A program made the position numbers and the translations under genes. This document shows positions 20,286 to 64,000 of a stretch of 64,000 nt of DNA, in pieces. Position 1 is the stretch's first letter, and each line of letters begins with the position of its first letter. Under the pieces are notes generated by a model. That model saw nothing but the letters and a program-made list of their open reading frames with translations. It had not been told where the DNA came from and did not search any database. Origin of the DNA: an uncultured Gammaproteobacteria bacterium (lineage in GTDB: Bacteria; Pseudomonadota; Gammaproteobacteria; CAWCPV01); contig CAWCPV010000003.1 of the NCBI GenBank assembly GCA_963797555.1, positions 288,001 to 352,000 on the forward strand. Direction: 5' to 3'.

Positions 20286-20335
20286 TGGCGTCCCCAACGG
20301 GATTCGAACCCGTGTTGCAGCCTTGAAAGGGCTGT
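20286..20335 (-). repeat. att site: duplicated 3' 50 bp of tRNA-Glu
   Basis: Matches 28988-29037. Confidence 0.95.
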
Positions 20336-20471
20336 CTGACGTCCGCAGCCGTCCGTCGCTGTCCACGTAACCCATTCTCCCGCTTGCTTTCCTGTCCATG
20401 CTCGTCCATACTCGTCCGTAGGGTTCCACCCTGGGGTATTACGGAAGATTACGGAAGCGAGGGTTACCGCC

Positions 20472-21712
20472 ATGCCAAGAATCGCACGGGACGCGCGCAT
20501 CGAGACACGGGACGCCCGGACCCGGCTGAAGGTCCGCAAGGAGCCGTACTGGCGACAGATTCACTTCGGGCTGTCGGTCGGGTACTACCGGGGCGCTCAC
20601 GCAGCCGCCTGGGTAGTGCGTCGCAGGGTAGACAGCCGCTATGCCTTCGAGACCTTGGGCGCCGCAGACGACCACCAGGACGCCAACGGTCTGGACGTCC
20701 TGAGCTACGCCCAAGCCTGCCGCAAGGCCATGGAGCTGGCCGATCAGGCCGTGACCGCGCCGGTCGAGCGCGGCTACACCGTGGCCGATGCCTGTCGGGA
20801 CTATCTGCTGTGGTTCAGGGCGCACCGCAAGAGCTACCGGGACACGGAGCGCACCGTCAACGCGCACATCCTGCCCGCCCTGGGGGCGCAAGGTAGCGAA
20901 CCTGACGACGGTGGATCTGCGCCGCTGGCACCAAGAGCTTGCGGAGGCCCCGGTCAGGCGCCGCGGCAAGCTGGTCCCTGCGGACCCCACCGATACCGAC
21001 GCGACGCGGGCCAGGAAGGCCACGGCGAACCGAATCCTGACCGTGCTGAAGGCCACGTTGAACATGGCCTACCGCGAGGGGAAGGCATCGACAGACGAAG
21101 CCTGGGATTGCGTGCGCCCGTTCCGTGCGGTCGAGGAGCCGAAGGTCCGCTATCTGACCGCGGCCGAAGCCGAAGCGGCTGATCAACGCCTGCCTGCCAG
21201 ACTTCCGGGATTTAGTGGTCGGTGCGCTGCTCACCGGCTGCCGGTACGGGGAGCTCTGCCGGCTGAAGGTCGGAGATTGTGACCGGGACGCGGGCACGAT
21301 CAGGGTCTCGGAGAGCAAAGCCGGGAAGGCCCGCCATGTGCCGCTGACCGACGAAGGCCAAGCGCTGTTCGAACGGATGGCGGCCGGCCGGCGCGGGACC
21401 GCTCCCGTGTTCGTGCGTCCCGACGGGGAGCCCTGGGGCCAGTCGCACCAAGTCCGGCCCATCCGGGAGGCGAGCCGGCGAGCCGGAATAGACCCGCCCG
21501 TGTCGTTCCACATCATCCGCCACACCTATGGGTCTCTGCTCGCCATGCGGGGCACGCCACTGGACGTGATCGCCGCGGCCCTGGGGCACAGCGACACGCG
21601 CATGACTTCCCGCCACTACGCCCACCTGCAGCCGTCCTATGTGGCGCAGACCATCCGGGCGAACCTGCCGAGCTTCGGGGTTCGGCCTGGGAACGTGCGG
21701 CGCATCGGGTGA
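20472..21712 (+). CDS. int: tyrosine integrase (frameshifted)
   Basis: TGCRYGEL, SKAGKARHVPL, HIIRH, LGH, RHY catalytic motifs; next to att. Confidence 0.92.
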
Positions 21713-21717
21713 GCGCC

Positions 21718-22266
21718 ATGGAGCAATTCAGCCGATGGTGCCGACATGTCGGAGGGAAGCCCGACGGCTACGCCCGCCTGTATGAGTTCGCCAAAGCCAT
21801 GGAGCGAGGCGAGACGCCTCGCCCCGAGCTGTTGCGCGAGCTGGCGGACGTGTTCAATCGGATTCTTGGATGACCAAGACCCGGCGCGCGCCCTGGGGCT
21901 GAAGAAACGCCAAGGACGCCGGATCACCATTCAGTCGTTGGACCGTGCGATTCTATCGCAGAGGGCGTCGTCTGGCTGCGCCTGGGAGGCTGCCCACTGG
22001 AAGCGAACGACCCTCGGCGCGTCGGAGCCTTCGCTGAAGTCGCTAAGCTTGCGAACAAAGCAGAGGCGACAGTGCGCGCGCAGTATGCCAGGCATCGCCG
22101 CAGCGCCATCCTCGAAGTGAAGATGAAACTTCTTACCGTGCTGGCCGTCGATCGGATGCACGGCAAAGACCCGAACCCCGACGTTTTGTCCTTGCTGGAG
22201 AAGCTGCCGCAGCCTTTTGCGCTCGTGACGGCTGATGTTCTCGCCTGGCTCTCTTATCAGAACTAA
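21718..22266 (+). CDS. hypothetical protein (frameshifted), possible regulator
   Basis: ATG directly after int; same position as 58159 ORF in element C. Confidence 0.4.
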
Positions 22267-22376
22267 GCCGCCAAGTACACCCCCAAGAAATCACCGTCGA
22301 TTTGTTGAGGGTTAGCATTCGCTGATCCGCGTGGTGAAATTGCTCCTTCGCCTATCCGCGCACGGAGTAAGACACC

Positions 22377-22631
22377 ATGTCCAAGAAGGATTCGCCCCGC
22401 CCCACGGGCACAGACCCGGCCGCCTACGGCTCCTTGACGGCGTTCTTTGCCGCACACGGCCTGTCTAGGTCGAAGGGCTATGAGCTGGTCCGCGCGGGCT
22501 TCGGCCCGCAGACCACGCGGATCGGGAACAAGCAAGTCGTGTTCGCGGAGCAGGCCGTTGAGTGGCGCGCGCGCTTGGCGAAGATCGGGACCATCCCAGC
22601 AGAATCGAAATACAGGCGGGCAGTCAGATGA
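22377..22631 (+). CDS. AlpA/excisionase-like HTH protein
   Basis: SLTAFFAAHGLSRSKGYELV..G.GP.TTRIG....EW pattern. Confidence 0.7.
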   Translation: MSKKDSPRPTGTDPAAYGSLTAFFAAHGLSRSKGYELVRAGFGPQTTRIGNKQVVFAEQAVEWRARLAKIGTIPAESKYRRAVR

Positions 22632-22770: not shown

Positions 22771-24141
22771 ATGGCAGGCCTAGCCGAGCGCGCAAAGAAG
22801 CTGGACGAGCGCATGGAGCGCGCGGAGGCCAGGGCAGACGCAGCGAACGCTGCACGCGAGCGGCGCAGGGCGAACGGCGCCCCACCCGGCGCGGAAAACC
22901 GATCTGCCGATCAGACCTCTCGCATCAAGGAAACCCTCGAAGGCATCCGCACCGGCAACGACCTGCGCGGGATGGAACTCTCCCCGGTCACTTGGGCTGT
23001 CGAGAGGCTGATCCCCGCTGGGGTGACCATCTTGGGCGGAAAACCGAAAGCGAAGAAGAGCTGGATGATGCTGGGCATTGCCATTGCCGTGGCGTGTGGC
23101 GGGAAGGCGCTCGGGAGCATCGACGTGGACCCTGCGGACGTGCTCTATCTGAGTCTGGAGGACGGGAAGCGGCGCTTGAAGCGTCGGGTGGACATCCTGG
23201 AGCGCAGGGCGGACTTGTCGAGGCTGCACTACGCGACTCAGTGGCCGCGGCTGCACGAGGGCGGCACCGAGGCGCTTGAAGCATGGCTCCGGTCCCATTC
23301 GGAGACCCGACTGGTCATCATCGACACCCTCGCCAAGGTACGCCCGCCAGGGAAGCAGAACGAGACCCTGTACACCAACGACTACATCGTGGGCGAGCTG
23401 CTGATTGGTCTCGCCACCCGCTTCGACGTGGCCATCGTGCTCATACACCACTGCCGCAAGCTGGACGCGGAGGACCCGATCGACCTCATCAGTGGATCTC
23501 TCGGGCTCACGGGCGGTGTTGACGGCTACATGGTGCTGAAGCGGGCGGTCGGTGAGCGTGATCTGGCCTTCCTCACCGTGGTCGGGCGCGACTTGGACGA
23601 GGATCAAGAGCTGGCCGTCAAGTGGCATCAGCCAACCGCCACGTGGCACATGCAGGCCGGCAACGCTGAGCGCTACAAGCTATCTCATGAGCAGCGCGCC
23701 GTCATCGAGGCCCTGTCCGAGCATGGGCCTATGCACACCAAGGATCTGGCCGAACGGCTGCACCCTGGCACGAAGATCAGCGACACCGAGCAGTCGAGGG
23801 AGTACAAGAGCACCGCTAAGCTGTGCAGCAAGTTGGCCGCCAAGGACATGATCCATCGGCGGCACTATGACAAGAAGTGGGACGTTACCAATACACAAAC
23901 ACCGGTAGTAGTAGTAGAAGAAGAAGAAGTAGTAGAAGCGGTAGAAGCGGTAGAAGTGACAGGTAAGGGTACCGACTTCTACCGGTGTGAGGGGGCTTCT
24001 ACCGGTACTTCTACCGGTTACGAGAACTCTAATATACGTTCTGCCGCAACGCCTGCACGGGAAACTTCTACCGCTTCTACCGGTACTACCGCGCGCGCGC
24101 GCGAACCTGGCGATGATGACGACCTAGAGGAGCAACCATGA
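22771..24141 (+). CDS. RepA-like (AAA_25, SF4) helicase
   Basis: GKPKAKKS Walker A variant, VLYLSLED, LVIIDTL, LIHHCRK, ISGS; C-terminal wHTH. Confidence 0.85.
   Translation: MAGLAERAKKLDERMERAEARADAANAARERRRANGAPPGAENRSADQTSRIKETLEGIRTGNDLRGMELSPVTWAVERLIPAGVTILGGKPKAKKSWMMLGIAIAVACGGKALGSIDVDPADVLYLSLEDGKRRLKRRVDILERRADLSRLHYATQWPRLHEGGTEALEAWLRSHSETRLVIIDTLAKVRPPGKQNETLYTNDYIVGELLIGLATRFDVAIVLIHHCRKLDAEDPIDLISGSLGLTGGVDGYMVLKRAVGERDLAFLTVVGRDLDEDQELAVKWHQPTATWHMQAGNAERYKLSHEQRAVIEALSEHGPMHTKDLAERLHPGTKISDTEQSREYKSTAKLCSKLAAKDMIHRRHYDKKWDVTNTQTPVVVVEEEEVVEAVEAVEVTGKGTDFYRCEGASTGTSTGYENSNIRSAATPARETSTASTGTTARAREPGDDDDLEEQP
23904..24090. repeat. inverted arrays of GTAGAAG/CTTCTAC, putative replication origin of A
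   Basis: Several gtagaag followed by several cttctacc(gg) inside the helicase 3' end. Confidence 0.65.
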
Positions 24142-24692
24142 ACGACATCCCGGTACGGCTACCCTACGGCGGAACGCATTGGGACCCGACCATCCCGCGC
24201 GGCGTGCTGGATGGTTTCATCCGGGCTCGGCATCCCGCGAAGCACTACTACGGGGCGCTCTGGATACCGCCCGGGTTTACCTCTACAGAGCGGTTCAAGA
24301 ACTGGGCCATCGCGATGAGGGAGCGGGCATCCTGGCAGCGCGTGGTGAGCTTCATGGATGCCACCGGGCTACGCCCGAGCGAGGCTTACCGTCGCGTGTT
24401 CCCTCCCCACGGGTTGATGTGGCATCCATACTTCGACCATACGCTGATCTGGCGCGATGACGGCGGGTATATCGTCACGACTGAGCCCTATGGCGAGTGT
24501 GCCCACAACGACCCCGAGGGTACGGCATTCTGGGCAAGAGAACACGGCTGGCAGTGCGTCGCTGCTCCCGAGTGGGGGATGTGGAGACCACCGGAGACGC
24601 ACTTGTGGATACTTTCGCCGCCACGCGTCGGGGCGGACGTGGAAAAGGTCATCCGGCGACTGACGGTTCAACACGAGGGCAAGAGGGTATGA
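24138..24692 (+). CDS. hypothetical accessory protein
   Basis: Overlapping start/stop with helicase, RBS gaggag, Trp-rich with FDH..TEPY. Confidence 0.65.
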   Translation: MNDIPVRLPYGGTHWDPTIPRGVLDGFIRARHPAKHYYGALWIPPGFTSTERFKNWAIAMRERASWQRVVSFMDATGLRPSEAYRRVFPPHGLMWHPYFDHTLIWRDDGGYIVTTEPYGECAHNDPEGTAFWAREHGWQCVAAPEWGMWRPPETHLWILSPPRVGADVEKVIRRLTVQHEGKRV

Positions 24693-24956
24693 GCACCACC
24701 TACCACCTTCACCCGCTGGCCGACGCAGGCGCAGATCGCGGGGTGGTTGCGGGTGAGCCGAGCAACTATCGAAAATTGGGTGACAACCAATGATAAAGTT
24801 GTCATTGGTTGTCACCAGTCCAACTCGCCCGAGCGCATGCGCGGACGCTCTGGTCCCGGACCGAGTCGAGGCTCTGTGGAAGGTGGATGTGTCTGAAGCT
24901 TCAGGCATATGAGAATATTATCAAACGCTTCAGAACGTTGTGGCCCAACGTTTCAC

Positions 24957-25040
24957 GGGTCCTCCCTGGCCTCCTCCTCTGCGGTCCAACGGGCCTGCGG
25001 GATTTAGCTAGCGTAACGCCTCCCTAGAGGATTCCTTCCC
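24957..25040 (+). other. putative lambda-like cos packaging site (A)
   Basis: GGGTCCT (identical to lambda cosQ) ... gcgggatttagcta; conserved in B and C; directly before terS. Confidence 0.6.
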
Positions 25041-25046
25041 TACCCA

Positions 25047-25547
25047 ATGGGCATCAACGTCAACAAAAAACAGTTGGCCGAGATCTTCGGATTGAGTCAG
25101 AGGACCTTGACCGAGCTGCAACGCGCAGGATTGCCCATCGAGGAGCGCGGCGCCCGCGGCCGGCCGCCATGTGTACGATACAGCCGCGGTCCACGCGTGG
25201 CTCCTGCGGCCGCGAGTCCGTGAAGCATCGCGCCAACGGCGATGGGCGCCCGCTGGACCTGGACCAAGAGCGCGCCAAGCTCGCAGCCGCTGATCGCGCA
25301 TTGAAGGAACAAACCTTGCGCGAGAGGTCGGGCGAGCTGATTGACGCTTCCTGGGTGCGTACTACCGCTCGCACGCTCTGCGCAACCGCCCGCGAGCGGT
25401 TCGAGGTCCTGCCAGACCGCCTGGCTGCAATTCTCGCGGCCGAGAGCGACGAACGGCGGGATTTACGATCTGATGGCGAACGAGATCCGCGCGGTGCTGG
25501 CCGAGTTTGCCGAAGGTTCGATCGAGAAGTTTGGCGAAGTAAGGTAA
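25047..25547 (+). CDS. Nu1-like terminase small subunit (frameshifted)
   Basis: VNKKQLAEIFGLSQRTL..GLP, DQERAKL..AD..L..GELID pattern of lambda gpNu1. Confidence 0.75.
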
Positions 25548-25649
25548 TTCCACAGGAGACGAAAATGCACAAGCCACCCGATGACTTCACCCAGAGCCAG
25601 AGCCCGCGTTTGCTGATGCAGCGCGCCGTGGTTTCACTCCCGACCCGGT

Positions 25650-25873
25650 ATCGCCGCCACGGCTGTCCTTGTTGGCGCCGCCTGTGGACCGAGATCGAGC
25701 CGCACCTGAAGAAAGGCGGACATTCCTGCCGCGTTCACGTGCGAGTTCACGCGCACCGAGGCCGAGTTGGCCGCCCGGATCAGCTCGCCTTGCTGGCGGG
25801 CATCGGTCAACGTCGAGGCCGGCGCCCAGGCCGCACCGAGGCCGCCAACGGCAAGCCCGATACCGCGAGCGTA
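25650..25873 (+). CDS. conserved small satellite ORF (frameshifted; bounds approximate)
   Basis: LWTEIEPHLKK..EAELAARIS homologous to 41982 and 63416. Confidence 0.55.
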
Positions 25874-26166
25874 ATACGGGTGTGCCGAGCATTCAGCCAC
25901 CACGCATTCGAAACCTCCCGCCGGCGTGAGGTTGTGCTCCAGGATTTCTCTGCTTGTCCTCCTTGCTGAGCTTCGCTCGTCCGCGCATGCGCTCGGGCGA
26001 GTTGGACTGGTGGTAACCTTTACCAGAGCTGGTATTGGTTACCAGCTAATTCGCTACGGTCTGCTGGCTCACCCGCAACCACCCCGCTCGGGCGAGTTGG
26101 GCTGGTGGTAACCAATGACAACTTTATCATTGGTTACCACCCAAACCTCCGGGCGGTACTAGCGCC

Positions 26167-26740
26167 ATGAGCCGCGAACGCCTCGCCCAAGCTGCTGACG
26201 CTGGCCGAGAGACACGATCCGGCGTTGCACGCGTGGTTCCGTGACTCGCTGGCACGGTGGAAGTGCGGGTCTACCCCTGGAGACCGCCCTGGAGCTGGCA
26301 GGCCCGGGCGCTCGTCGGCTTCGGGATTCCGCCATCCGCGCCTGGCCGAGCTGCTGGACCCGGACGGCCGAGTACTCGCGATGGCACGTCGCTGGGCTTG
26401 TGATGCGTGCGCTCGCCAGGAAGCACACCAGCGGGGAGATTGGCGCCGCGGTCCAAGCTATTCTGGCATTGGGGTGCGTGGTTCCGGGGCGCCGCCGAGT
26501 GTGGAGCCTCCTGGAAGGCAGACAGGGCGGGATGCTGCTGAAGGAGGAGGAGCGCAGACAGGGCGGAGACGGGAAGTGCGCGGTTGCCGGCAACGTTGCC
26601 GGAACCGTCGAATCCTACGCCCGTGCTCTCGAGGAGGAGGAGCGCAGACAGTTGGCGAACGGACTGACAAACTTCCGCCAATATTGGCGGAAGTCTCACC
26701 CTACGCCCGTGCTCTCGAGGAGCTCGCGTTCTTTGCAATT
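26167..26740 (+). CDS. conserved pre-capsid satellite ORF (frameshifted; end approximate)
   Basis: MSRERL..LAERHDPALHAWFRDSLARW..RDSAIR homologous to 42295 and 63692. Confidence 0.6.
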
Positions 26741-26808: not shown

Positions 26809-27885
26809 ATGCAGAAGAACGATAAGCCAGATTGACACGCCCGATTCCATTCTCGCCGCGAGCGACGTTCGAGCCGCGATGGGCGATTGGCTCGCGCTTC
26901 GCGCGGGCCTTCTGCGCGCTGATGATGCGGACCCGATAGCCGGTGGAGCTGACTGGATCCGCTCGCACCGGCCACGCTCGCGGATGTTGCTTGCCATCTG
27001 GCGCGGCCGGGGCAGTGGCGTCACCGCTCACGAGGCGGCCCGAGAGTTTCACGGCACCGATTTTACCGATTCGTTGAGCGTCGGATTGTCCCAAGTGGCA
27101 GGCATCGCGTATTCGCGGCAGGCCGCGGAGAATTCGCAAATCTGCAAAGACGTTACGGTCCCGAATCTCCAACCCGTCGCGTTTCCTGTTTTGGACGTTG
27201 GCGAACTCAGCGAAACGCCGAATGCGGGTGGTCCCGTGCAATTCGCGACCACGTTTGCGAGCGATGGCGTATTTGGAAGCAGCGAATGTTTTCTCTGCGC
27301 GTTTCCTGATTCCGCGCAGACTTGCTCGTAAACGACAACGCTGGCATTGTCGCGCTGGCCGTTGCTCAGTTATCTGGGCATGCTGCTGCGTCTCGAGGCC
27401 CAGGCCATCGCTGCAATTCTCGCGAGCCAACGCGAACTTGGGCGATGGCGCGCGCATTGATCGGCATCGGAAAACACCGCGAGCGGTGGGATCACGAGCG
27501 TAACGGGTCTTGCTGCTGCCGCTGGGAAGCTGCGTACGCGGAGCACGTCGGGCGGAAACGTTGCGAACGTGAAGGCGCGCTTCTTGGCTCGTTGCTGGCG
27601 ATGCGGAGTTTGCCGCGTTGACGACCCTTGGCGGTATCATCCGGGCGGCACACCGCGGATCGATGTGGTCACGAATGCGTGGCTACCGGCTGCGACAGCT
27701 TCGTACCTTTTAGCATCTCCAGATGACGCGCCCACTTTCATTCGGCTCGGGCTGACTTCTCCACCGAAGCCAAGCGTGATCCGACGCCGAGCGCCTCCGG
27801 TTTCGACGGATTGGCGTATGTCGTCGAGCACGTTTTCGGAGTTGCGGCTGTTTCTCGGGATGGACTTGTGAAGATAACGGCGTGA
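26809..27885 (+). CDS. major capsid homolog of A (several frameshifts)
   Basis: Nucleotide-colinear with the intact capsid gene 42942..44012. Confidence 0.75.
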
Positions 27886-37726: not shown

Positions 37727-38014
37727 ATGAGCGCCACCAGGAGCGCTCGGGGCGACCCCGGGCCCCAGAACGACGACGGCCCCGAGGCTGGGCACCTCGA
37801 GGCCGCGGAGCAGACAACACCGACGCCTCAGGATACCACAACTTGCGCCGCGTGCGAACGCCCGGCCGCCCCAGGGCGCATCCTCTGCGCGCAGCACCAG
37901 CGCGATCTCACCCGCCTTCCATGGCGCTGCTCAGTCTGCGGTGAGCCCAACGACGGCCGCGAGAGCGGGCTGTGCTTGCGGCACCTACGCGAAGTCAGTG
38001 GGTGGCCGACATGA
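37727..38014 (+). CDS. small Cys-rich protein
   Basis: CAAC..LCAQH..CSVC..LCLRH; homolog at about 58980-59150. Confidence 0.55.
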   Translation: MSATRSARGDPGPQNDDGPEAGHLEAAEQTTPTPQDTTTCAACERPAAPGRILCAQHQRDLTRLPWRCSVCGEPNDGRESGLCLRHLREVSGWPT

Positions 38015-39934
38015 GCAAATCCCTATATGAACGCGGCCTGGAGCTGGACCGTGCGGAGGCCAAGGTCGACGCTGCCCGCAAACGCCGTGAGCGGCGCAAG
38101 GCCAACGGGGCGGGCGAGGCCCCGGCGACCGACGCGGATGGCAGGCCGGTTATTCACTGGGTGGGTGGTGCGCTTGAACAAGCGGTGTCCGCTGCCGAGG
38201 CCGCCATCCTGGCCGACGGAGGGGAGGCCATCTACCAACGCGCGGGATCATTGGTGCGCGTGGTACGGCTGCCGTCCGGCACCGTTCGAGGATTCAAGCG
38301 CCCCGATGGCACGCTGGGCATCCTGCCCGTGGAAGCCGGCTATCTCACGGAGCGGTTCAGTGTGGCCGCTAGTTGGGTACGCTGGGACGACAGGACGATC
38401 GATGGGTGGAAGCGGATCGCCCCCCCGCCCAAGCGGCGAATACCTACCTGGCTCGGAGCGGGAAGTGGAGCGTGCCAGCACTCACGGGGCTGGTCGCGAC
38501 ACCCACGCTGCGCCCGGATGGAAGCCTGCTGAGCCTCCCTGGGTACGACGAGGCGACCGGGCTGCTGTACGTGCCGGGAGGACTCGTATGTCCTTCGATA
38601 CCCGATCATCCGACCTATGAGGACGCGCGAGCCGCGATCGAGGTACTGCGCGAGCCGTTGGCGGGCTTCCCGTTTGCCGACACGCAAGCCATAGCGTCGT
38701 ACTGTCCGCAATCCTCACGGCGCTCTGCCGCCATGCGCTGCGCTCGGCACCGCTGCTCGGCTTCGATGCGACCGTCATGGGGAGCGGCAAGACTCTTCTG
38801 GCCGACGTGGTGGCGATGATAGCCACCGGCCGCCGAGCTGTCATCATGGCGCACTCGCCCCAACCCGAAGAGGAACGTAAGCGCCTGCTCTCTGTGCTGT
38901 TGGATGGCGCGCCGCTGGTGGTGGTCGACAACATCGGGGCGACGTGGACATCCGACGCGCTGTCCGCAGTTCTGACCGCGGAGACCTTCAAGGATCGCGT
39001 GTTGGGGGCGAACCGCATGGTAGAGGCACCTACGGCGGTTACCTGGCTCGCGACGGGGAACAACCTGACGTTTGCCGGAGACCTGGCAACGCGCGTGTTG
39101 GTGGCTCGCATCGAGCCTCAGTGTGAGCGCCCCGAGGAGCGTCGGTTCGAGCGCGATCTCTATGACTGGATACCACGGCACCGGGGAATCCCGGTGGCCG
39201 CCGCACTGACCATCCTGCGCGCATACCAGGAGTCGGGCAGGCCAGACATGAAGGTGAAGCCATACGGACGCTTCGAGGACTGGTCGTCATGGATTCGATC
39301 GGCGCTCGTGTGGCTCGGGGAAGCGGACCCTTGCGATACACGCGGCAGTATCGAGGACGCTGATCCGGTGCGATCTCAATTGCGGGATCTGCTAGGCGCC
39401 TGGCATGAGCGTTATGGCACTTCCGCGGAGACGATAGCGCGCGCCATCGATGGCGGAGGAGACCCACTGCGTGCAGCAATGTATGCGATTGCCGGAGAGC
39501 GCAACGACATCAACACGCGAAAGCTCGGGCGTTGGATGCTGCGGCACAAGGGGCGCATTGTCGACGGCAAGAGCTTTGGCCAGCACCGGAGCGGGCACGC
39601 GGCGCGATGGGCTGTCGTGGTGACTCAAAAAGAAGGTAGCGGTTATTGCTCTAAATGCGGTTACCCCCATAGGGTGGATCAAAATTGTCAAAACAACACA
39701 GATAGTGTGGATAATAAAGAGACCGACAATTCTGGGGGGGTGAGTGGGGCAAACCGCAAACATACCAGTAACCGCAGACCCGAGACCCGCCAACCCGGCT
39801 CCGGCGACCACCTCGTGCGCTGCGCCGATTGCTCGCGTTACCGTTGGGCAGAGCGTTGCGGCGCCGGGCTGTACTCGGGCGATCCGTTGAAGCCTAGGGA
39901 CTGTCCCGAGTTCGAGGTGCGATCAGGCACATGA
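38011..39934 (+). CDS. primase-associated P-loop ATPase/helicase (frameshifted)
   Basis: TPTLRPDGS..GYD, GSGKTLLA, VVDNI, ATGNN, GDLATR. Confidence 0.75.
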
Positions 39935-40872: not shown

Positions 40873-41159
40873 TTCGTGAGTGACAGACCTTCGAGGAGTA
40901 TTGCGAGGGGCGGTGGGAAATGAGCCGAGTTAATGCCAGAGATCGGAGAGGGTTGGAGCACTTGTCTTATCATTCGACAAGTGTTTGTTGCAAAATGTTA
41001 CCAATTGGTAACACTTCTTCATGGTGCCGTGAAGAAGTTAGGAGCGCCAGATTGCCGAAGCGGATGGGACGGTGAGGCACCAAACAGTCATGCGGTCTAC
41101 TGTTACAAATGTAACAGTAGCGGTTCTGACTTATTCTGTGACCAGAGAGATCTTCAAAA

Positions 41160-41240
41160 GGTACTCCCGGCCTTCCCCAATTGCGGCGGCCAAGCCCGCG
41201 GAATCTCGCTAGCGTAACGTCCCCCTAGAGGGTTCCTTCC
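41160..41240 (+). other. putative cos site (B)
   Basis: ggtactcccggcc..gctagcgtaacg..tagagggttccttcc, conserved with A and C. Confidence 0.6.
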
Positions 41241-41798
41241 TTGGGAAAGTTGGTTAATAAGCGAGCATTGGCGGAGATTTTCGACATCAGCGAGCGGACG
41301 ATTACCGGGCTGTTGAAGCTCGGGTTGCCCATCGAGAAGCGCGCTGTTCGAGGCCGTCCGCACGTGTTCGACACGGCGCACGTGGTTGCTTGGTTGATCG
41401 AGCGTGAGGCCGCCAAGCATAAACCCAGCAGCAGCAACGGCGATGGGCGGCGCCTGGATTTGGATCAGGAACGAGCCATGCTCGCAGCCGCTGATCGCGC
41501 GTTGAAGGAACAAACCCTGCGCGCGCGGTCTGGCGAGCTTGTTTCCGCATCCTGGGTGCGGACTTCCGCTCGAGCGCTCTGTGGAACCGTTCGCGAGCGG
41601 TTCGAGGTCCTGCCGGATAGACTGTCTGCAATTCTCGCGGCCGAGAGCGACGAGCGCAAGATTTATGATCTGATGGCACGCGAGATACGCTTTGTGCTAG
41701 GTGAACTCGCTGAGGGTTCGAAAGCTTTCGGAGGTTCCGATGATGTTGAAAAGACTGAGCCCACTATGGACAGCGACGGCGCGGATCGTCCCGCCTGA
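41241..41798 (+). CDS. Nu1-like terminase small subunit
   Basis: VNKRALAEIFDISERTI..GLP..FDTAHVVAW..DQERAML. Confidence 0.8.
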   Translation: MGKLVNKRALAEIFDISERTITGLLKLGLPIEKRAVRGRPHVFDTAHVVAWLIEREAAKHKPSSSNGDGRRLDLDQERAMLAAADRALKEQTLRARSGELVSASWVRTSARALCGTVRERFEVLPDRLSAILAAESDERKIYDLMAREIRFVLGELAEGSKAFGGSDDVEKTEPTMDSDGADRPA

Positions 41799-42941: not shown

Positions 42942-44012
42942 ATGCCCATGCCGAAGAGCACATCCCGGTTAACGAAACCGATCGCATTCTCCCGCGGAGA
43001 CGTTCGAGCCGCGATGGGCGATTGGCTCGCGTTACGCGCAGGACTTGTGCGTGCTGAGGAGGCTGATCCAATAGCGCAGGAGCTGCTAGATCCCCTAGCG
43101 CCTGCGAACCTCGCGGACGTGGCTTGCCACCTGTCAGGCCGCGGCAGTGGCGTCACAGCGCACGAGGCGGCACGAGAGTTTCACAGCACCGATTTTAGCG
43201 ACGCGCTGGCGGTCGGGCTGTCCCAGGTGGCTGGCGTTTCTTATGCTCGGCAGGCCGCTGAACATTCCGTCATCGTCAAGGATCTCACGGTGCCGGATCT
43301 CAGGCCCGTCGCATTCCCTGTCATCGACGTGGGCGAACTCACCGAGACGCCGAATGCTGGCGGACCTATCGAGTTCGCTTCGACATTCGCGAATGATGGC
43401 GTATTTGGCGCCGCCAACGTTTTCTCGGCACGTTTCCTGATTCCGCGCCGTTTGCTCGTCAACGATGACGCTGGCGTTGTCACGTTGGCGGTCGCTCAGC
43501 TATCCGGACATGCTGCTCGTCTCGAGGCCCAGGCCATCGCTGCGATTCTCGCGAGCAACCCGAACTTGGGCGATTCCGCGGCACTGATCGACACCGGAAA
43601 CACCGCGAGCGGCGGCATTGCGAATGCCACGGGATTAGCCGCCGCGGCTGGACTCATGAGGACTCGAGTTACTTCTGGCGGGAATGTCGCGAATGTGCGC
43701 GCGCGCTTCTGGCTGGTTGCTGGCGATGCTGAGTTTGCCGCGCTGACGACCCTTGGCGGTATCTATTCGGGAGGCCCGCTGCGGATCGAGGTGGCCACAA
43801 ATGCGTGGCTTCCGGCTGCGACTGCGAGTTATTTACTGGCGTCTCCAGACGACGCTCCGACATTCGTTCGTTTGGGTTTGACTTCACCACCGAAGCCGAG
43901 CGTAATTCAACGTCGCGCACCGCCCGGTTTCGACGGATTGGCGTATGTGATTGAGCACGTTTTCGGAATTGCGGCTGTTTCTCGGGATGGACTTGTGAAG
44001 GTAACGGCATAA
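42942..44012 (+). CDS. major capsid protein homolog (Mu gpT-like HK97 fold), intact
   Basis: HSTDFSDAL, IPRRLLVNDD.G, A..LE...LASN.NLGD, GLAAA...MR, RFWLV, YL.ASP. Confidence 0.72.
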   Translation: MPMPKSTSRLTKPIAFSRGDVRAAMGDWLALRAGLVRAEEADPIAQELLDPLAPANLADVACHLSGRGSGVTAHEAAREFHSTDFSDALAVGLSQVAGVSYARQAAEHSVIVKDLTVPDLRPVAFPVIDVGELTETPNAGGPIEFASTFANDGVFGAANVFSARFLIPRRLLVNDDAGVVTLAVAQLSGHAARLEAQAIAAILASNPNLGDSAALIDTGNTASGGIANATGLAAAAGLMRTRVTSGGNVANVRARFWLVAGDAEFAALTTLGGIYSGGPLRIEVATNAWLPAATASYLLASPDDAPTFVRLGLTSPPKPSVIQRRAPPGFDGLAYVIEHVFGIAAVSRDGLVKVTA

Positions 44013-44017
44013 CGGAC

Positions 44018-44290
44018 ATGAGCAGTTTGACACGAGTTCAAGCCCTAGCCGCTGCTCGGAGTTTCCAGCGCCATTCCGGGATTTGCCGACGCTGCGCCAC
44101 TGCGGTGGCTGCCGAGCTTCGCGATTCTGCTCCCGGTATCCCGGCGATTGCCGTTTGCGAATCCGGCGCGGTTGTGGTGGGATTGTTCGCGATGTTGACC
44201 GTCGACGGGGCGTTGCTCGTGCAGCCCTTGGACGTGACCGAGCTGCCGCCCGACACGACGTTCTGCCCGGCGCCGGAGCGCGTTCAATGA
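44018..44290 (+). CDS. small CxxC protein
   Basis: Coupled to capsid gene; homolog in A. Confidence 0.6.
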   Translation: MSSLTRVQALAAARSFQRHSGICRRCATAVAAELRDSAPGIPAIAVCESGAVVVGLFAMLTVDGALLVQPLDVTELPPDTTFCPAPERVQ

Positions 44291-45214: not shown

Positions 45215-45721
45215 ATGGCACATGCCGCGGCTGGCGTCGAGGCCACCATACGGGGATTTGGGAGCACACTGCACGGGGTCATGCATGCTCCTAACCTTGC
45301 CCTCTTGCGGAGCGTCGACCAGACTGTCGACAGTCTGGCGCGCGAGCAAGAGATAGTCGCTGGATTCGAGCAGATTGCCCGCGGAGCGCTGCAAGCGCTC
45401 AAGGATTGCCGGCCAAAGCGGGCGATCGACCTGGATGGCACGTTGTGCGAGCAGTTGTTGTCAGGCGAGACCGCCATGAAGGCCCGGATTGACGAGTGTC
45501 AGAAGAAAAGGCAAGCGGCGTTTGATGACCCGATGCTTCGCGGTGCGCATGAAAGTGCGGTTGTGTCGGAGTACGACCGCTCGATCGCCTTATGGCGCGG
45601 CCTTCACAATGCGACCGTCGAACTACGCTGGGCTGTGATGGAGTCTGATGCGGACATGGAAGCACCTGTGTCCGAAGAAGCTGAATCGTTGGAAGGCCTT
45701 ATCTCGTCTCTGAAGGCGTAA
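45215..45721 (+). CDS. putative antitoxin
   Basis: Directly upstream of RelE-like gene; acidic tail ESLEGLISSLKA resembling RelB-type antitoxin tails. Confidence 0.55.
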   Translation: MAHAAAGVEATIRGFGSTLHGVMHAPNLALLRSVDQTVDSLAREQEIVAGFEQIARGALQALKDCRPKRAIDLDGTLCEQLLSGETAMKARIDECQKKRQAAFDDPMLRGAHESAVVSEYDRSIALWRGLHNATVELRWAVMESDADMEAPVSEEAESLEGLISSLKA

Positions 45722-45727
45722 AGGTGC

Positions 45728-45997
45728 ATGGCCAAAACCCTAGGGGTCAAAGGGTTTAAGCCGTTACCGCGGTTCAAGCGACTCTTCAGGAAACTGGATC
45801 CAAGCGTTCAACAGCAGGTTAAAGATACGCTTGCTGACCTTCAGAAGAACCCCATCCCACCAGGGCGTAGAGTCAAGAAGATGGAGGGACACAAGGATGT
45901 GTGGGAGGCGAGGGTCAACGACAATTTTAGGCTGACCTTCAAGATAGAGGGGGATACTGCAATCCTTCGGAACGTCGGCACCCACGATATTTTGTAA
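45728..45997 (+). CDS. RelE/ParE-family toxin
   Basis: 89 aa basic; FKRLFRKL..KKMEG..WEARVN..FRLTF..LRNVGTHDIL. Confidence 0.8.
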   Translation: MAKTLGVKGFKPLPRFKRLFRKLDPSVQQQVKDTLADLQKNPIPPGRRVKKMEGHKDVWEARVNDNFRLTFKIEGDTAILRNVGTHDIL

Positions 45998-50990: not shown

Positions 50991-51019
50991 TGGCGGGCAG
51001 TTGGAAATCAGCCGAATCA

Positions 51020-56927: not shown

Positions 56928-58162
56928 ATGCGCGTCAACTTCACCGCTCAGACCATAGCACGCCTAGCACCGCCCGAGCGCGGCCGGGCGTTCCACTACG
57001 ACGCCAAGACGCCAGGGCTCGCGGTCCAGGTAACCGCCGCCGGCACGCGGACCTTCTACGTCTACCGCTGGGTACAAGGCAAGCCCGAGCGGACCCGACT
57101 GGGCACATTCCCCAGCATGACGGTGGAGATCGCCCGAGCCCGGGCCGCGGAGGTGAACGCCATCATCGCCAGGGGTGAGAGCCCGCGGGCCAGGAAGAAG
57201 GACAAGAAGGCTCGCGCGGTCACCTTGGGCCAGGTATTCGAGGACTACCTTACCGCTCACGACCTCAAGCCCGGCACCGTCTACGACTACCGCAAGGTGG
57301 TACGGACGGCGTTTGCCGACTGGCTGGCATTGGCCGGTGACCGACATCACCCGTGACATGATCTCGGCCCGGCACAAGAAGCTTGAGCACACCAAGGCGA
57401 CAGCAAACAAGGCCATGCGCGTCCTTCGGGCGTTGCTCAACTTCGCCAGCGCCAAACTGGAGGACGCCCAAGGACACCCCCTCATCACGGACAACCCCGT
57501 GAAGCGGCTGTCGGCTACCCGCGAATGGTACCGGGTGGAACGCAAGCGCACCCTCATCAAGCCTCACCAGCTTGGTCCGTGGTTCCGGGCCGTGGCATCG
57601 CTCGCCCCAGGGCGCGACACCGGGACCGAGGCCGTGACGCGGGACTATCTGCAGTTCGTCTTGTTCACCGGCCTGAGGAAGGGTGAGGCCGCCCGCCTAG
57701 AGCTGGCCGACGTGGACATCGAAGGCCGGTCCTTCATCATCCGCGACACGAAGAACCGGGATCCCCACGAGCTGCCCATGCCCGAGTTCGTCCTGGAGCT
57801 CCTCGCCCGCAGACGGCAGGCCGCGGACGGATCGGCCTTCGCGTTCCCAGGGGAGCGAGGCGGATGCTTGAGCGACCCGCGGCGCCCGATGGCCGCAGTC
57901 ACCGCGCAGAGCGCGAGTCGCCTTCACGCTCCACGATCTCAGAAGAACCTTCATCACCGTGGCCGAGTCGCTGGACATTCCGGCCTATGCACTCAAGCGA
58001 CTGTTGAACCACAAGCCCGGCGCTGACGTGACGGCCGGCTATATCGTCATGGACACCGAGCGGCTACGCGAGCCCATGGAGCGGATCGCGCGGTATCTGC
58101 TCAAGGCCGCCGGGCTCGAACCGAGCGCGGAGATCGTGGATCTGGCCGAGCGCACCGCGTGA
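56928..58162 (+). CDS. int: P4-like tyrosine integrase with arm-binding domain (frameshifted)
   Basis: D...PGLAV.V..G.RTF, TGLRKGE, TKN, HDLRRT, LLNH..VTAGY. Confidence 0.92.
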
Positions 58163-58848: not shown

Positions 58849-59229
58849 CCATGGCCGCCCCGAGATCGCGGGCAGGCCCCGGGCCCCAGAAACGAGACGC
58901 GGCCCCGGTGGGACGAGCACCGGTGAGGCGCGCAGGGAGAGCACAGACCAGACGAGACCCCGCCAGCATACCACAAAGGCCTGCGTCGCGTGCGAACGCC
59001 CGAGCCGTGCCCGGACGCCTCCTCTGTGCGGAGCACCAGCGTCGCGCTCACCAGGCTTCCGGGACGCTGCAGTGTGTGCGGAGACGCCACAGACCTCGAG
59101 AGCCGACTGTGCCAGCTCCACCTGCGCGAAGTTGGGGATGCCGCGGGATGGGCACCGCAGCGCGGCTGGAGCACAGCTACCACGAGCGAGACGACCACGA
59201 GGACCTGCCACGCTGGCTACAGCATCTGC

Positions 59230-59650
59230 ACGCTGATAGACCGTCTCGAAGGCGTCCGGGAGACCGGGCCCGGGCGCTGGATAGCACGCTGTCCGGCACA
59301 TGAGGACTAAGCTGCCGTCACTGAGCATCCGGGAGACCGCCGATGGCGTGATCTTGCTGCGATGCTTTGCCGGCTGCGACGTTAACGCTGTCGTCGCTGC
59401 CGTCGGGCTGGAGCTGTCCGCATCTCTTCCCGCCGCGACCGGCTAGCACTACCGAGGACCTCTGCCGAGGTCCCAACGCCCGAGCCTCACCCTGCGCGAA
59501 GCCGTCGCGCTCATCCGAGAGTCGACGCTCATCATCGTCATGGCTGCTGGCGAGATCGATGCTGGCCGTGAGATTAGCGCGGCTGACCGCGCCACGGTCC
59601 TGAAGGCTGGCGAGGATATTTTTCGCGTGCTGGGCGAGGTGGAGCCATGA
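59230..59650 (+). CDS. primase zinc-binding (CHC2-like) protein, interrupted
   Basis: W.ARCPAHED..PSLSI...G.ILLRCFAGC..GL. Confidence 0.75.
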
Positions 59651-61142
59651 GCCAGCGCGGCGAGACATTGGCCGACAAGGCGAGGCGGAAGCTGGACGAG
59701 GAGGAGCGGCGAAGGGCGAACGGTGGAGCGGCGGAGGATGCCAGCGGGATCACGGACAGCGACCTTGCGAACGCCTGCCGCCTGGCACGTGACCACGGGC
59801 AGGATCTGCGCTATACGCCCGAATGCGGATGGATGGTTTGGGACGAGCAACGCTGGGCAGCGGATGAAGCTGCCGCCATGCGCAGGGCCAAGGCCGCCGC
59901 CGTCGCCATATTGGACGAGATCAAGCATGCCGGCCCCGGCCAACAAAGCGACCTCTTCAAGTGGGCGCGCCGTTGCAGTCCGCCGAGCGGCTGCGCGCCA
60001 TGTTGTTCCTCGCGCAGATCCGAGTTGGGATCGGTGCCCGGTTCGGCGACTTCGACCGTGATCCGTGGTTGCTCGCCGTCGCGAACGGCACCGTGGATCT
60101 TCGCACTGGCAAGCTGCTGAAGCACCGGCGGAGAAGACCTTGATCGCGAAGCTGTGCCCTGTTGCCTACAGACCCGCAGGCCAAATGCCCGTCATGTGGG
60201 AGGCGTTCCTTCGCCGCGTCATGCCCAGCGACGAGATGATCGCCTACGTTCGTCGCGCCGTAGGGTATTCCTTTGACCGGCACCACCGGAGAGCAGGTTT
60301 TGTTCTTCTGCTACGGGCTTGGCGCGAACGGCAAGACCGTATTCCTGGAGACGGTCCAGGCCCTGCTAGGCGAGTACGGCCGCACCACACCCACCGAGAC
60401 GCTGATGATCAAGCAGGGCGGAAGTAGGGAATCGAAAATGACGTGGCGCGGCTGGCCGGCGCCCGGTTCGTTGCGGCGAATGAGACCGCGGACGGGAAGC
60501 TTCTGAACGAGTCGCGCATCAAGGACTTCACGGGCGGAGAACGCACAGCCCGACCGGTTTTTGAACCGGGAGTTCTTCGAGTTCCGTCCGCTGTTCAAGC
60601 TCTGGCTTCGAGGCAACCACCGCCCGCAGATCCGCGGCACAGACGAGGAGAATCTGGCGCCGCATCCACTTGATCCCCTTCGAGGTGCGCATCCCCCGAG
60701 TCGGATCGGGACCCCGAGCTGATCGACAAGCTCGCGGCCGAGCTGCCGGGCATCCTCGCTTGGGCCATCGAGGGCTGCCGGCTCTGGCAAACCGCCGGTG
60801 CTTCAGCCACCGGCGTGCGTGCGAGCGGCGACCACGGAATACCGGCGCGAGATAGAATCTATTGGGCGAGTTCCTGGAGGAGCGGTGCGTCTGCGGCCCG
60901 GACAAGCGATGCGTGGCTGGGGGATCTGTACGCCGCGTATCGGGAGTGGTGCGAGACCGCCGGACAACACCCTGTCAGTCAGATGCGGTTTGGAACCGCC
61001 ATCGCAGAGCGTGGCTTCAAGCGGGACAAGGACCGGCGCGGACGGAAAGATCTACGTCGGGATCGGCATTCTCTCGGGTGAGGAAACCCCCATGGCGGCG
61101 GTGAGGACCCCACCCCTGATGACGGACACGACGGACAGTTAA
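59647..61142 (+). CDS. P4/D5-family SF3 primase-helicase (several frameshifts)
   Basis: [48 protein letters not shown]. Confidence 0.88.
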
Positions 61143-61499
61143 GACCACTTTTTCCGGATCCCCCTTATTCGAGCGACGTTGTAAAGCAGAACCCCGATAA
61201 AGTGGTCAAACCGTAGGTCGTGTCCGTGCGTTGAGAAATGAGTGACCCGGCTCAGATGACCACCTCGCGCGCTGTAGGGATTGCTCTAACTACGTTGGGA
61301 CAGCACGCTGTCGGGCGGAGGAGTACAGCGGCCGGCCGGACGAGCTGAAGGATTGTGCGAGCTTCGATGACCGCGGACCATCGCGGACCGACCTGAGGGA
61401 CGAGGCATGACCAACGCCCTGACTCCACCGCCCGATCTCGCGGTCGTCATCGAGCGCTTGTTCCGTGGCGTCAACCGAGAGCGCATCGCCCCGAGAGCT

Positions 61500-62365
61500 G
61501 CTCCGCATCGTCCACCAGCTGCGGGACTACTGGCCGCTTGACGGTGAGTCAAGTCTATTACCAAGCCGTCGCGCAGCGGTTGCTTGTGAACCGTCTGAGC
61601 CGAGTACAAGCGGGTATCGATGCTCCTAACTATACTGCGCCGTGAGGACGTTTTGCCTTGGCGCGCCATCGAAGACCGAACCCGGCGCACCATCGACAAG
61701 CGCGGTGTGCCCGACCTGCAAGCGTTCGTGGAAGAGCAAATGGAGGATTTCATGGATTGGCGTTACTACCATCGCTGCCTCGTGCGGGATCAGGAAGTGT
61801 ACGTCGAGGTGGCCACGGAAAAGGATGCTCTGGCGCGGATCTTCGAGGAAGCGGTATGGCCTTATTGCGTGCGGCTCAACATCGTACGCGGTCAGGTTTC
61901 CGCTACGATGGTGCATGACATGGGCGAGCGCTTCGGGCGCGCAGTCATGAATGGGCCAGACGCCGATACTGCTCTACTTCGGGGATTTGGACGCTTCCGG
62001 GGTTTGCATCCCGCGCGCCTTGCGCGATAACCTGGAAGAGCACCACAGCGTTTCGGTAGATCTGCGCCGGCGTTGCGCTGACGCCGCAACAAGTGATCGA
62101 GCACGCGTTGCCAACGTCGATAGAGGCGGCAAAACGCACGGACCCGAACTACAAAGCCTGGGTCAGGGAATACGGCGATCAACAGCCGGTCGAACTGGAC
62201 GCGCTGCATCCTGAACTGATGACGCGGATCATTACCGACGCTCTGGAGAACACACTGGACATGACCACCATGGACGAGCAGCAGAAGATCGAGACCCGTG
62301 AGCGCGACATCCTGCGGACCATGCGGCGTAGCGTCGAGGACTTCCTTGGAGGCGCGGTTCCCTGA
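61500..62365 (+). CDS. Topo VI-A/Spo11-like TOPRIM protein (frameshifted; start uncertain)
   Basis: VEVATEKDAL, RG..S, LYFGDLDASG, ALT..Q, VELDAL. Confidence 0.7.
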
Positions 62366-62727
62366 GGTGTTCCGTTATGGGTACTAGTACCAACATGCCC
62401 CACCGGACACAAAAAAGGTCCGCGTGCGGACCTTTTCCACTGACGCAGCACAATCCTGGGTTGGTGCGTGGTCAAAAAAAAAGATCCGCATGCGGATCTT
62501 TTTCCACCATCCCAACGCGCCGCAGAGTTCCGCCGCCAGACTGATGGCCAGGGCGTGGAAGGCTTGGTGTGCAGGGATGCGAGTGTTGCGCTGGGCACGC
62601 AAATTGCCCGAATATTCGGGCAATTTCGGCCTTCCCCTCTGCTCCCCCTGCACATCGCCAGACTGATGGCCATCGCCAAGCACCCGCGGCTCGCAGATCG
62701 GAACTCATGGTTCCGATTTGCCGCAAA

Positions 62728-62810
62728 GGTACTCCCAGCCCTCCCCAATTACGGCACCCAAGCCGGCAAAGAATGCCTAGCGTAACGCCTTCAATAGGAC
62801 TTCATTCCCA
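62728..62810 (+). other. putative cos site (C)
   Basis: ggtactcccagccctccccaattacgg..ctagcgtaacgcc conserved with A and B. Confidence 0.6.
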
Positions 62811-63270
62811 ATGACCACCACCGGCAAATTCGTGACCCGCTCCGAGCTGGCCAAGATTTTTGGTGTGACCGAGCGCACGATTAGCGCCTGGGGACAGGAT
62901 GAATCGTTCCCTGTAACGCGGATCGGCGCCATCAAGAAACGACTGCAATTCGACACCAAGGAGGTCATCGACTGGTACGTGCAACGTGAGGTGGCAAAGC
63001 TCAGGCCGAACGGTAAATTATTAGACCCGGAGAACGAGCGGGCTTTGTTGTGGCGCGCCCAACGGCTTTACAACGAGAGGCGCACGGAGGACATTAACGC
63101 TGAGGTTGCCAGGCGCACCAGTTCGGCCATATTCACGGCTGCGCGAGTCGCCCGAGACCATTAGAAAACTTACCGTTTCGTGTCTCTGCGGAGTTGCTTG
63201 GCAAGACCTCTCGGGAGATCGAGGATAGACTCATATCGGAGATTCACACGCTTTGTCCGAGCTGGTAGGG
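62811..63270 (+). CDS. Nu1-like terminase small subunit (frameshifted; end approximate)
   Basis: VTRSELAKIFGVTERTISAW..FP..FDTKEVIDWY..ERALL. Confidence 0.75.
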
Positions 63271-63415
63271 CGCGGCCGCTCGAATGAAGCATTACCCACC
63301 ACCACCACAAGGAGACCAGCAGATGTCAGCATAGAGACGGTTCTGACTTCAGAGCCCGAGCTTCGTGTAGGGATGGCGCGCGCGGATTCACTGCGATCGG
63401 ATATCGCCGCCGCGG

Positions 63416-64000
63416 GTGACCTTGCTGCGTTCGTTGTGGATCGAGATTGAGCCGCACGTGCGCAAGGCTGATATTCCTGCCGTGTTTGCGGCGTTTCAGG
63501 TCAGCCGAGGGCGAGTTGGCCGAGCGGATCTCAGCTCGTTGCTGGCGACGCCACGAACGCGGCCATCGGCGCCAAGCCTCCGCGAGGCCGCCGACGGCCT
63601 CACCGATACGCGATGTAGGTAGGGTGAGACTGCCGCCAATGTTGGCGCCAGATCGTCTGTGCCTGCTTGTTGCGCTCCTCCTTCTTCAGCAATGAGCCGC
63701 CAGCGCCTCGCCAGCTGGCTGAAACGCTGGCCGAGCGACACGATCTGGCGCTCGGGGAGTGGCTTCGTGAGTCGCTTGGCACGGTGCTGAAGGCGGGTGC
63801 TGACCTTGGATGTCGCGCGCTGGATCTGTCGTAGGATCTGCGCGCTCGTGCGGCTTCGGGACAGTGCACATCAGTCGCCTTGGCCGAGATCCGGTGGACC
63901 CGACCGGCGCGAGTTCGACGTGGGCTGTCGCCGGCATGGTCGTCGGCCGACTCTGCGATCGCCGTTCGAGCAGTCGGTGACGTTGGTGCAGGCCGTTTCT
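63416..64000 (+). CDS. conserved small ORF and start of the pre-capsid ORF (63692), both frameshifted
   Basis: LWIEIEPHVRKAD; MSRQRL..LAERHD..WLRESL. Confidence 0.55.

Follow-up and report, generated by a model that had tools for sequence, protein, structure and literature searches.

Probable phage-satellite islands at tRNA genes of an uncultured gammaproteobacterium that encode a small terminase and a stand-alone HK97-fold capsid homolog

The 64,000-nucleotide stretch analyzed here (the window, G000:C3:288001-352000) belongs to the genome assembly of an uncultured gammaproteobacterium (G000; 5.35 Mb, ~63% G+C, 20 contigs, 84.6% complete), whose order has no other representative in the 199,900-species collection searched. 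It holds islands A (8.7 kb) and B (9.8 kb) and most of a third, C (9.4 kb), each flanked by a direct repeat of the 3' part of a tRNA gene. Together with two further islands elsewhere in the genome, D and E, they probably form one family of proteobacterial phage satellites of the phage-inducible chromosomal island (PICI) type. The late module common to this family comprises a ~95-nt non-coding block, a Nu1-family small terminase subunit (TerS), a 70-aa open reading frame (ORF), a 143-aa ORF, a capsid homolog with the HK97 fold, and a 90-aa ORF. Gene content and fold support the proposal of an earlier first-pass annotation of this DNA that these are satellite-type islands, not prophages, that supply a TerS and a stand-alone capsid homolog. 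The PICI design has already been published, and the islands add to it a member in an unusual host lineage, with no new mechanism.

The boundaries of the islands and their homologous late genes at tRNA-Glu, tRNA-Val, and tRNA-Leu, as first annotated, are borne out by the attachment (att) repeats (Table 1) and by blastn, which reports 73-81% DNA identity between the late modules of A (24993-27881) and B (41194-44008), with C matching both over shorter stretches. The likeness among A, B, and C is real and far beyond chance. ARAGORN and Rfam report genes for tRNA-Glu, tRNA-Ala, and tRNA-Val in the window; the right third of C, with the broken capsid gene, the remnants of the 90-aa ORF, attR, and tRNA-Leu, lies outside it. 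A whole-genome tblastn search with the proteins of A and B returned the two other islands. Island E (contig C4, 9.5 kb) follows a tRNA-Lys gene, is bounded by a 46-bp att repeat, and encodes an intact 406-aa integrase, a YoeB toxin, an intact 761-aa Prim-Pol/AAA_25 protein, a 174-aa Nu1-family TerS, and a 143-aa-family ORF; the capsid gene is absent from it. Island D (contig C6) follows a tRNA-Arg gene and encodes an integrase, a DUF3987 primase-helicase, a DUF4326 protein, a TerS, and a 143-aa ORF, after which a Tn5-type insertion sequence (IS) is inserted before a 359-aa capsid homolog and a 90-aa ORF.

In the six frames of A, B, and C, 124 ORFs of at least 90 residues were compared with PHROGs; 29 families were matched, and the 25 listed correspond to integrase, primase/helicase, TerS, capsid, and excisionase/helix-turn-helix (HTH) functions. 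Portal, large terminase (TerL), tail, lysis, holin, and connector families are not among these 25, and the initial observation that A and B have no portal, large terminase, protease, or tail genes stands for the families listed. The islands might nonetheless be read as what is left of ordinary lambdoid prophages after deletion of most of their genes, given a genome rich in IS elements and broken genes and the broken genes that A, B, and C all contain. We hold this to be very improbable: across the five islands a compact common order is kept within 8.7-9.8 kb between exact att repeats, a range that D exceeds only via IS insertions; each has a primase-replicase of plasmid or P4 type replacing phage replication genes; no portal, TerL, tail, or lysis remnant appears among the PHROG families listed; and intact islands of the same layout occur in other genomes.

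Two observations bear on the helper of these putative satellites. GpA-type large terminase returns 0 matches in the genome, and all four Nu1 matches of the genome are confined to the islands, which together indicate that the assembled part of the genome contains no cognate helper. In another genome, locus L040 is a true lambdoid prophage head module with a TerS-like ORF, a GpA terminase, a lambda-family portal, an S78 protease-capsid fusion, gpZ, and a tail tube protein. Because the Nu1-family TerS and the PF25209 capsid homolog of the islands both mirror this one kind of phage, the helper is likely lambdoid. The first annotation had suggested as much, and the suggestion gains from L040, where the same capsid family adjoins a GpA TerL and a lambda-family portal.

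The TerS of island B is intact. PHROG analysis reports phrog_57 (TerS) over its residues 1-177 (5.7e-33), and its N-terminus matches the DNA-binding domains of lambda-type TerS proteins in the PDB (6.6e-8 to 5e-6). The TerS of D is 42% identical to it, and the shortened TerS of C shares 52% identity with residues 2-114 of the TerS of E. Rpp, a PICI protein of ~144-153 aa (RppA/B/C family) that binds the helper TerS according to the accessible part of PMC6739421, was considered as an identity for the B protein and rejected, as RppC is hit only at E=0.3 and phrog_57 is covered nearly end to end. Immediately upstream, the ~95-nt non-coding block ends at the terS start in all five islands, and nhmmer finds no other copy in the genome. 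This block is a candidate packaging site (cos or cosB-like) or late promoter, and the initial portion of it is also present ahead of a TerS-like gene in L028, an island of another genome. Several results give a cos function no support: no consensus secondary structure was found for the block; the phage and island loci retrieved contain no copy of it; a pattern scan of viral_contigs returned one match (L042) without homology; and of the 13 matches in genome_contigs, only L052 has family genes and the rest are chance-like. The island matches of L052 are the same as those of L028, and the two are counted once.

The capsid homolog of island B aligns to the C-terminal halves of phrog_133 and phrog_4523, which are protease-capsid fusions of 644-668 positions. 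AlphaFold2 returned a model of high confidence (pLDDT 91.6, from a 36-sequence alignment), and Foldseek analysis of this model reports hits of probability 1.0 with HK97-fold capsids and also encapsulins in the PDB and with phage major capsid proteins in BFVD. The N-terminal ~110 residues are helical (helices 18-109), resembling a short delta or scaffold domain, and are followed by the HK97 fold. The stand-alone capsid ORF of the first annotation is thus an HK97-fold protein, as the Pfam match to PF25209, the model, and the Foldseek hits agree; its label as 'gpT-like' is not retained, gpT appearing only as a weak secondary Pfam match in relatives. An encapsulin identity was rejected despite the encapsulins among the Foldseek matches, the gene following TerS in an integrase-primase island and its product matching phage capsid families. 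Pfam matches PF25209 in the homologs of B and D, the copies of A and C being broken; in A the profile match reaches 3.1e-80 with one TGA and one TAA inside, and the pieces in the separate frames still make good capsid sequence. A profile made from the two intact homologs matches 2443 clusters at E<=1e-3 among 1.84 billion representatives (565 at 1e-10 and 64 at 1e-30), the best 150 of the 2443 being 206-419 aa long. A homologous-protein search returned only the query itself for the capsid homolog, with the same outcome for the 143-aa ORF. Two stray relatives were also seen in this genome: an orphan 374-aa PF25209 capsid homolog (9e-18; window 12861-13985), more distant from the copies of A-D and lying between IS fragments (rve_3 at 12146-12637 and DDE_3 at 14137-15222 on the minus strand) with no tRNA or TerS nearby, and a partial capsid with a 90-aa homolog at G000:C14:474123-474858.

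If we assume that the islands are PICI-type satellites, their cycle could run as follows. The tyrosine integrase would insert each island into the 3' end of a tRNA gene. A lambdoid helper would supply the GpA-type large terminase, the portal, the protease-capsid fusion, and the tail. The TerS encoded by the satellite would recognize a site of the satellite itself, probably one lying in the conserved block beside terS, and recruit the helper TerL, so that satellite DNA would be packaged. The capsid homolog may be a copy of the capsid half of the helper protease-capsid fusion with a shortened helical N-terminus, and would most likely co-assemble with or perturb the helper capsid, as does Ccm of the staphylococcal island SaPIbov5, favouring satellite-sized heads. 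Ccm offers the best functional analogy for the 356-aa homolog. A caution comes from the E. coli PICI EcCICFT073, in which deletion of the capsid or decoration gene gave no phenotype in the accessible part of PMC6092414, and by analogy with it a Ccm-like role is unsafe.

Relatives in the class help to place these islands. The capsid profile matches 12 of the 400 scored genomes of the class sample at E<=1e-8, a tally that includes G000 as well as the unpublished genomes G295 and G307, which are used in this count alone, with one further genome unscored. Loci from nine matching genomes comprise four integrase-bearing islands of the same design (Table 1), the prophage module L040, and four loci on short or cut contigs. 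They bear on whether the islands belong to a class between PICIs and capsid-forming PICIs (cf-PICIs), in which the island capsid protein builds the entire small shell and only the portal, TerL, and tail come from the helper. No HK97 element is missing from the capsid homolog, which is full length (again at pLDDT 91.6), its stand-alone form is the large family of 2443 clusters mentioned above, and L038 and L037 carry a protease-capsid fusion or a long capsid protein in integrase-replication-TerS islands with no TerL or portal among the ten ORFs scanned. That scan covered only ten ORFs, however, published PICIs already hold capsid and serine-protease/decoration genes (as the available text of PMC10085698 has it), and the EcCICFT073 capsid homolog is dispensable for transfer (PMC6092414, same portion), and we find such an intermediate class distinctly unlikely. 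Somewhat less remote, and still doubtful, is a broader proposal of a separate PICI branch. Its helpers would be lambdoid phages with protease-scaffold-capsid fusions; a trimmed capsid half would determine head size or form the shell; its own TerS and block would serve as the packaging address; its members would form a series from PICI to cf-PICI; and the CRISPR-like mini-array of B described below would borrow host Cas proteins against rivals. In that proposal L038 would have kept the whole fusion, and the lineage found here would have pared it down to the capsid half, preceded by a short helical N-terminus.

Several points weigh against the PICI-type assignment itself. The AlpA-type regulator is weakly seen, with PF05930 at E=0.005 in A only and one match to phrog_66 (excisionase/transcriptional regulator) among the 124 ORFs. 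The assembly holds no helper phage, and tblastn of the capsid homolog against 50,697 phage records returned no match, no sequenced phage being near enough to be named as the helper. With most copies broken, the family may have ceased to function in this host. In A, the integrase, TerS, and capsid genes are all frameshifted; C has split genes for the integrase, the capsid homolog, and the 143-aa and 90-aa ORFs, and a TerS ORF that ends at 117 aa. In B, the TerS, 143-aa ORF, capsid homolog, and 90-aa ORF are intact, the integrase is absent, and the primase is split. As assembled, A and C thus appear dead, and B would be unable to integrate or replicate alone; E is the only island that keeps integrase, primase, and TerS all intact. 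The first annotation had presented A and B as fully bounded elements, which is correct for their att boundaries; A is frameshifted, B lacks an integrase, and this breakage had been missed.

The frameshifts might also be errors of assembly, the elements being intact and active in the living organism. Eight of the ten single-base indels in the A capsid gene are insertions and the protein reads well in successive frames, a pattern that fits consensus errors as well as decay, and the completeness of the genome is only 84.6%. The frameshifts are, however, strongly clumped. Among the ~12 RND pump loci of the genome, six are intact, three are in two pieces, one in six, one in at least 11, and one is truncated; five loci are thus split while six RND genes of ~3 kb each are unbroken, which argues for real pseudogenes and not for a uniform error process. 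In addition, the B capsid and TerS genes and many host genes are intact, A and C contain in-frame stops, the B integrase is missing altogether, and a 64-bp insertion accompanied by a 10-bp duplication breaks the 184-aa gene of E, a change that is not of an error type. A general origin of the breakage in assembly errors therefore seems unlikely to us. The split host genes may stem from widespread decay into pseudogenes in a genome rich in IS elements or from local errors of assembly, and because host genes are frameshifted as well, decay or assembly error may underlie the broken island genes. The NfeD-like and Band 7 host genes (window 2694-4149 and 4151-5667) also appear split over frames.

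The early halves of the islands are less uniform than the late module. The integrase is intact in E, present in D, and split in A and C; in B, no integrase domain is found at E<=0.01. In A, only the last of the three integrase pieces matches PF00589 (3.8e-27), with the integrase domain at 21224-21631. Replication modules vary: A and E carry PrimPol-AAA_25, B and C a zinc-finger primase-helicase, and D has DUF3987; such mosaicism is typical of satellites. The helicase of A shares 40% identity with residues 374-677 of the 761-aa protein of E, and the B primase matches phrog_29234 (DNA polymerase/primase; 5.2e-63) over profile positions 566-861 of 887. The 184-aa ORF that follows the helicase in A has no Pfam or PHROG match; its copy in E is the one broken by the 64-bp insertion, whose flanking 10-bp duplication is direct (L002, that is G000:C4:824001-837000, at ~5960-6090). 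Coordinates of all features are collected in Table 1.

Table 1. Features of islands A, B, and C (window positions) and related islands of other genomes
Feature	Position	Strand	Remarks
A attL	20282-20335		54-bp exact copy of tRNA-Glu 3' part; k-mer match to 28984-29037
A integrase	20472..21712	+	three frames (ORFs 20472-21182, 20788-21282, 21215-21712); coding-frame profile 0>1>2
A small HTH ORF	22377..22631	+	weakly AlpA-like; PF05930 E=0.005 (below cut-off) at 22452-22559
A replication helicase (AAA_25)	22771..24141	+	PF13481 1.2e-24; without the Prim-Pol half found in E
A 184-aa conserved ORF	24138..24692	+	94-99% identical copy in E (tblastn)
A conserved block	24947..25046	+	non-coding, 5' of terS; nhmmer 7.6e-19
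A TerS	25047..25535	+	frameshifted, frames 0/2/0; tblastn pieces against E and B TerS; PF07471 partial, 28.9 bits
A small Pro-rich ORF and 143-aa ORF remnants	25747..26525	+	several frames; tblastn against B and D proteins
A capsid homolog	26852..27882	+	pseudogene as assembled; about ten 1-nt indels, in-frame stops
A attR	28984-29037		inside tRNA-Glu 28988-29063 (-)
B attL	36843-36896		54-bp copy of tRNA-Val 3' part
B primase/helicase	37972..39934	+	broken over frames 1/0/2; last ORF 38777-39934 = C-terminal 385 aa
B conserved block	41146..41240	+	5' of terS; nhmmer 3e-25
B TerS	41241..41798	+	intact, 185 aa, Nu1 family; PF07471 Phage_Nu1 3.9e-9
B 70-aa ORF	41982..42194	+	Pro-rich C-terminus; conserved in D, A, C
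B 143-aa-family ORF	42295..42861	+	all-alpha; conserved in D, E, L028; 75-nt tandem duplication at 3' end
B capsid homolog	42942..44012	+	intact, 356 aa; PF25209 Phage_capsid_4 1.3e-14 over residues 82-354
B 90-aa ORF	44018..44290	+	after capsid gene; 64% identical in D, fragments in A and C
B accessory pair	45215..45997	+	168-aa ORF and 89-aa RelE/HigB-like ORF (below Pfam cut-offs)
B attR	46659-46712		inside tRNA-Val 46665-46739 (-)
C attL	56695-56755		61-bp copy of tRNA-Leu 3' part
C integrase	56928..57909	+	split over frames; tblastn pieces, frame profile, partial PF00589 at 57628-57909
C primase/helicase remnants	58851..61374	+	B-related; blastn B against C, tblastn 61246-61374, frame profile
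C conserved block	62711..62810	+	5' of terS; nhmmer 7.2e-21
C TerS ORF	62811..63164	+	117 aa, N-terminal two thirds only; PF07471 30.8 bits
C 143-aa-family remnant	63727..64000	+	runs to window end
C capsid homolog	window-equivalent 64133-65179		broken; beyond window end
C attR	window-equivalent 66121-66181		tRNA-Leu(taa) 66128-66210 (-); beyond window end, read from genome sequence
L028			integrase, 143-aa-family ORF, capsid homolog, TerS-like ORF; beside tRNA-Pro
L030			integrase, P4-type primase, SSB, 460-aa capsid homolog; beside tRNA-Pro
L037	5029-13060		integrase, AAA_25, DUF1441-like ORF, 157-aa ORF, 619-aa capsid protein
L038	4686-12877		integrase, primase, HTH protein, 149-aa ORF, 647-aa ClpP protease-capsid fusion

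The small late ORFs around the capsid gene are conserved. For the 70-aa, 143-aa-family, and 90-aa ORFs, no Pfam, PHROG, PDB-fold, or named Atlas relatives were found, and any role in the satellite cycle would be putative. AlphaFold2 returned a pLDDT of 68 for the 143-aa-family ORF of B, and Foldseek reports nothing in the PDB at E<=0.001; its look-alikes in the Atlas are unnamed phage and proteobacterial clusters. The 75-nt unit duplicated in tandem at 42680-42829 of this ORF encodes an HTH-like peptide twice, and an inverted 94-nt copy of the unit (96% identical) lies near the right end of A (28723-28816), with no further copies in the genome.

Among accessory genes, PADLOC returned 0 hits on ten ORFs. 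Island B also contains a CRISPR-like mini-array (44827-45153) in which a partly palindromic 28-nt repeat recurs five or six times with a 60-61-nt period and unique spacers. The repeat has no copy elsewhere in the assembly and matches no Rfam CRISPR family at the gathering threshold; one 'spacer' (45095-45124) shows a 93-96% match to four other sites of the genome. The host itself has at least six larger CRISPR arrays and several cas1 loci, and one array on contig C9, with a 28-nt repeat and a 61-nt period, shares the period of the mini-array. Between B and C, segments 48191-48631, 50554-50993, and 53589-53778 are 92-100% identical to each other and contain a reading frame that is presumably akin to the C-terminal end of IS200/IS605-type transposases; another pair of repeats, 150 nt long, occupies 52359-52508 and 55691-55839.

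The published PICI model accounts for most of what is found here. As given in the available portion of PMC10085698, its core set comprises an integrase, an alpA/merR/stl regulator, a primase-replicase, a capsid morphogenesis gene (commoner in Proteobacteria), and terS, and it forbids tails, holins, portal, and connectors. According to the part of PMC6092414 at hand, a capsid homolog is also present in PmCI172, and terS homologs occur in some of the Gram-negative PICIs. Set against these TerS-encoding Gram-negative PICIs and the PICI model (PMC6092414, PMC10085698, within the same portions), four core functions are found across the family and the regulator is weakly detected. The earlier statement that E. 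coli PICIs use only a TerS-like redirector was in this respect too narrow (PMC6092414), and the idea of an undescribed satellite lineage with a new strategy gives way to an existing model whose core set the islands essentially fit (PMC10085698). The islands depart from model PICIs in that their capsid homolog is of another family, a true Nu1-type TerS stands where those have Rpp, the copies are several and sit at different tRNA genes, and most of them are decayed.

The closest comparison is with EcCICFT073, located in RefSeq at NC_004431 ~1377930-1388654, where it encodes an integrase, an HTH regulator, a primase, a single-stranded DNA-binding protein (SSB), PerC, a 351-aa capsid protein, a 111-aa decoration protein, and ORFs of 137, 144, and 93 aa. 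The 144-aa ORF we take, from its length alone, to be Rpp. Two other CFT073 regions examined as EcCICFT073 proved to be ordinary lambdoid prophages. Pfam assigns its capsid protein to lambda gpE (PF03864) and its decoration protein to gpD (PF02924). Like the islands described here, EcCICFT073 spans ~10-11 kb, begins with an integrase, an AlpA-type regulator (seen weakly in the islands here), and a primase(-SSB), and continues with a late block in which a stand-alone ~350-aa capsid homolog is followed by a small ORF; both lack portal, TerL, and tail genes (here among the PHROG families listed), and the capsid copy mirrors the capsid family of the helper there and of the likely helper here. EcCICFT073 also has a packaging-specificity protein with a Nu1-like winged HTH beside its own cos, whereas the block of the islands here is a candidate site only. 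The two differ in the capsid family (lambda gpE/gpD genes there, PF25209 here; hhalign gives a probability of 0.06 between the two capsid types), in Rpp (144 aa, binding the helper TerS) as against a near full-length Nu1-family TerS, and in gene order, the terS-like gene following the capsid gene there and preceding it here. They differ likewise in host, E. coli there and a distant gammaproteobacterium with mostly broken copies here. The capsid profile returned no match in E. coli CFT073, an empty result of a search that shows little. The capsid and head decoration proteins of EcCICFT073 are c1499 and c1500 (PMC6092414, available part).

With the cf-PICIs, as far as the consulted portion of bioRxiv 10.1101/2022.09.08.507074 describes them, the islands share an HK97-fold capsid protein and a TerS of their own, whereas cf-PICIs also encode portal, TerL, protease, and head-tail connectors. 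A cf-PICI identity was rejected, no portal, TerL, protease, or adaptor/connector being among the PHROG families listed for the 124 ORFs and no GpA_ATPase being found in the genome. The likeness to SaPIbov5 lies in the capsid homolog. In the accessible part of PMC5052747, Ccm has 355 residues with a helical N-terminus, shorter than that of the helper, and an HK97 fold at residues 83-355, and it redirects capsid size; the B homolog has 356 residues, also with a helical N-terminus, and a Pfam match at residues 82-354. SaPIbov5 is a cos-type satellite, in which it can be likened to the islands here, whose cos is only a candidate; it differs in its Gram-positive host, in having no TerS of its own and using that of the helper, and in that size redirection has been shown experimentally there and would be expected here by analogy (same portion of PMC5052747). 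The present islands extend the PICI design, with its own TerS and a copy of the helper capsid, to a gammaproteobacterial lineage alone in its order in the collection searched and to a second capsid family, PF25209, which supports the view that capsid copies are taken from whichever helper group is exploited. With its five or more copies, which occupy five different tRNA genes and include three inside a 46-kb span, and with their replication modules swapped, this genome is a compact example of satellite mosaicism and decay.

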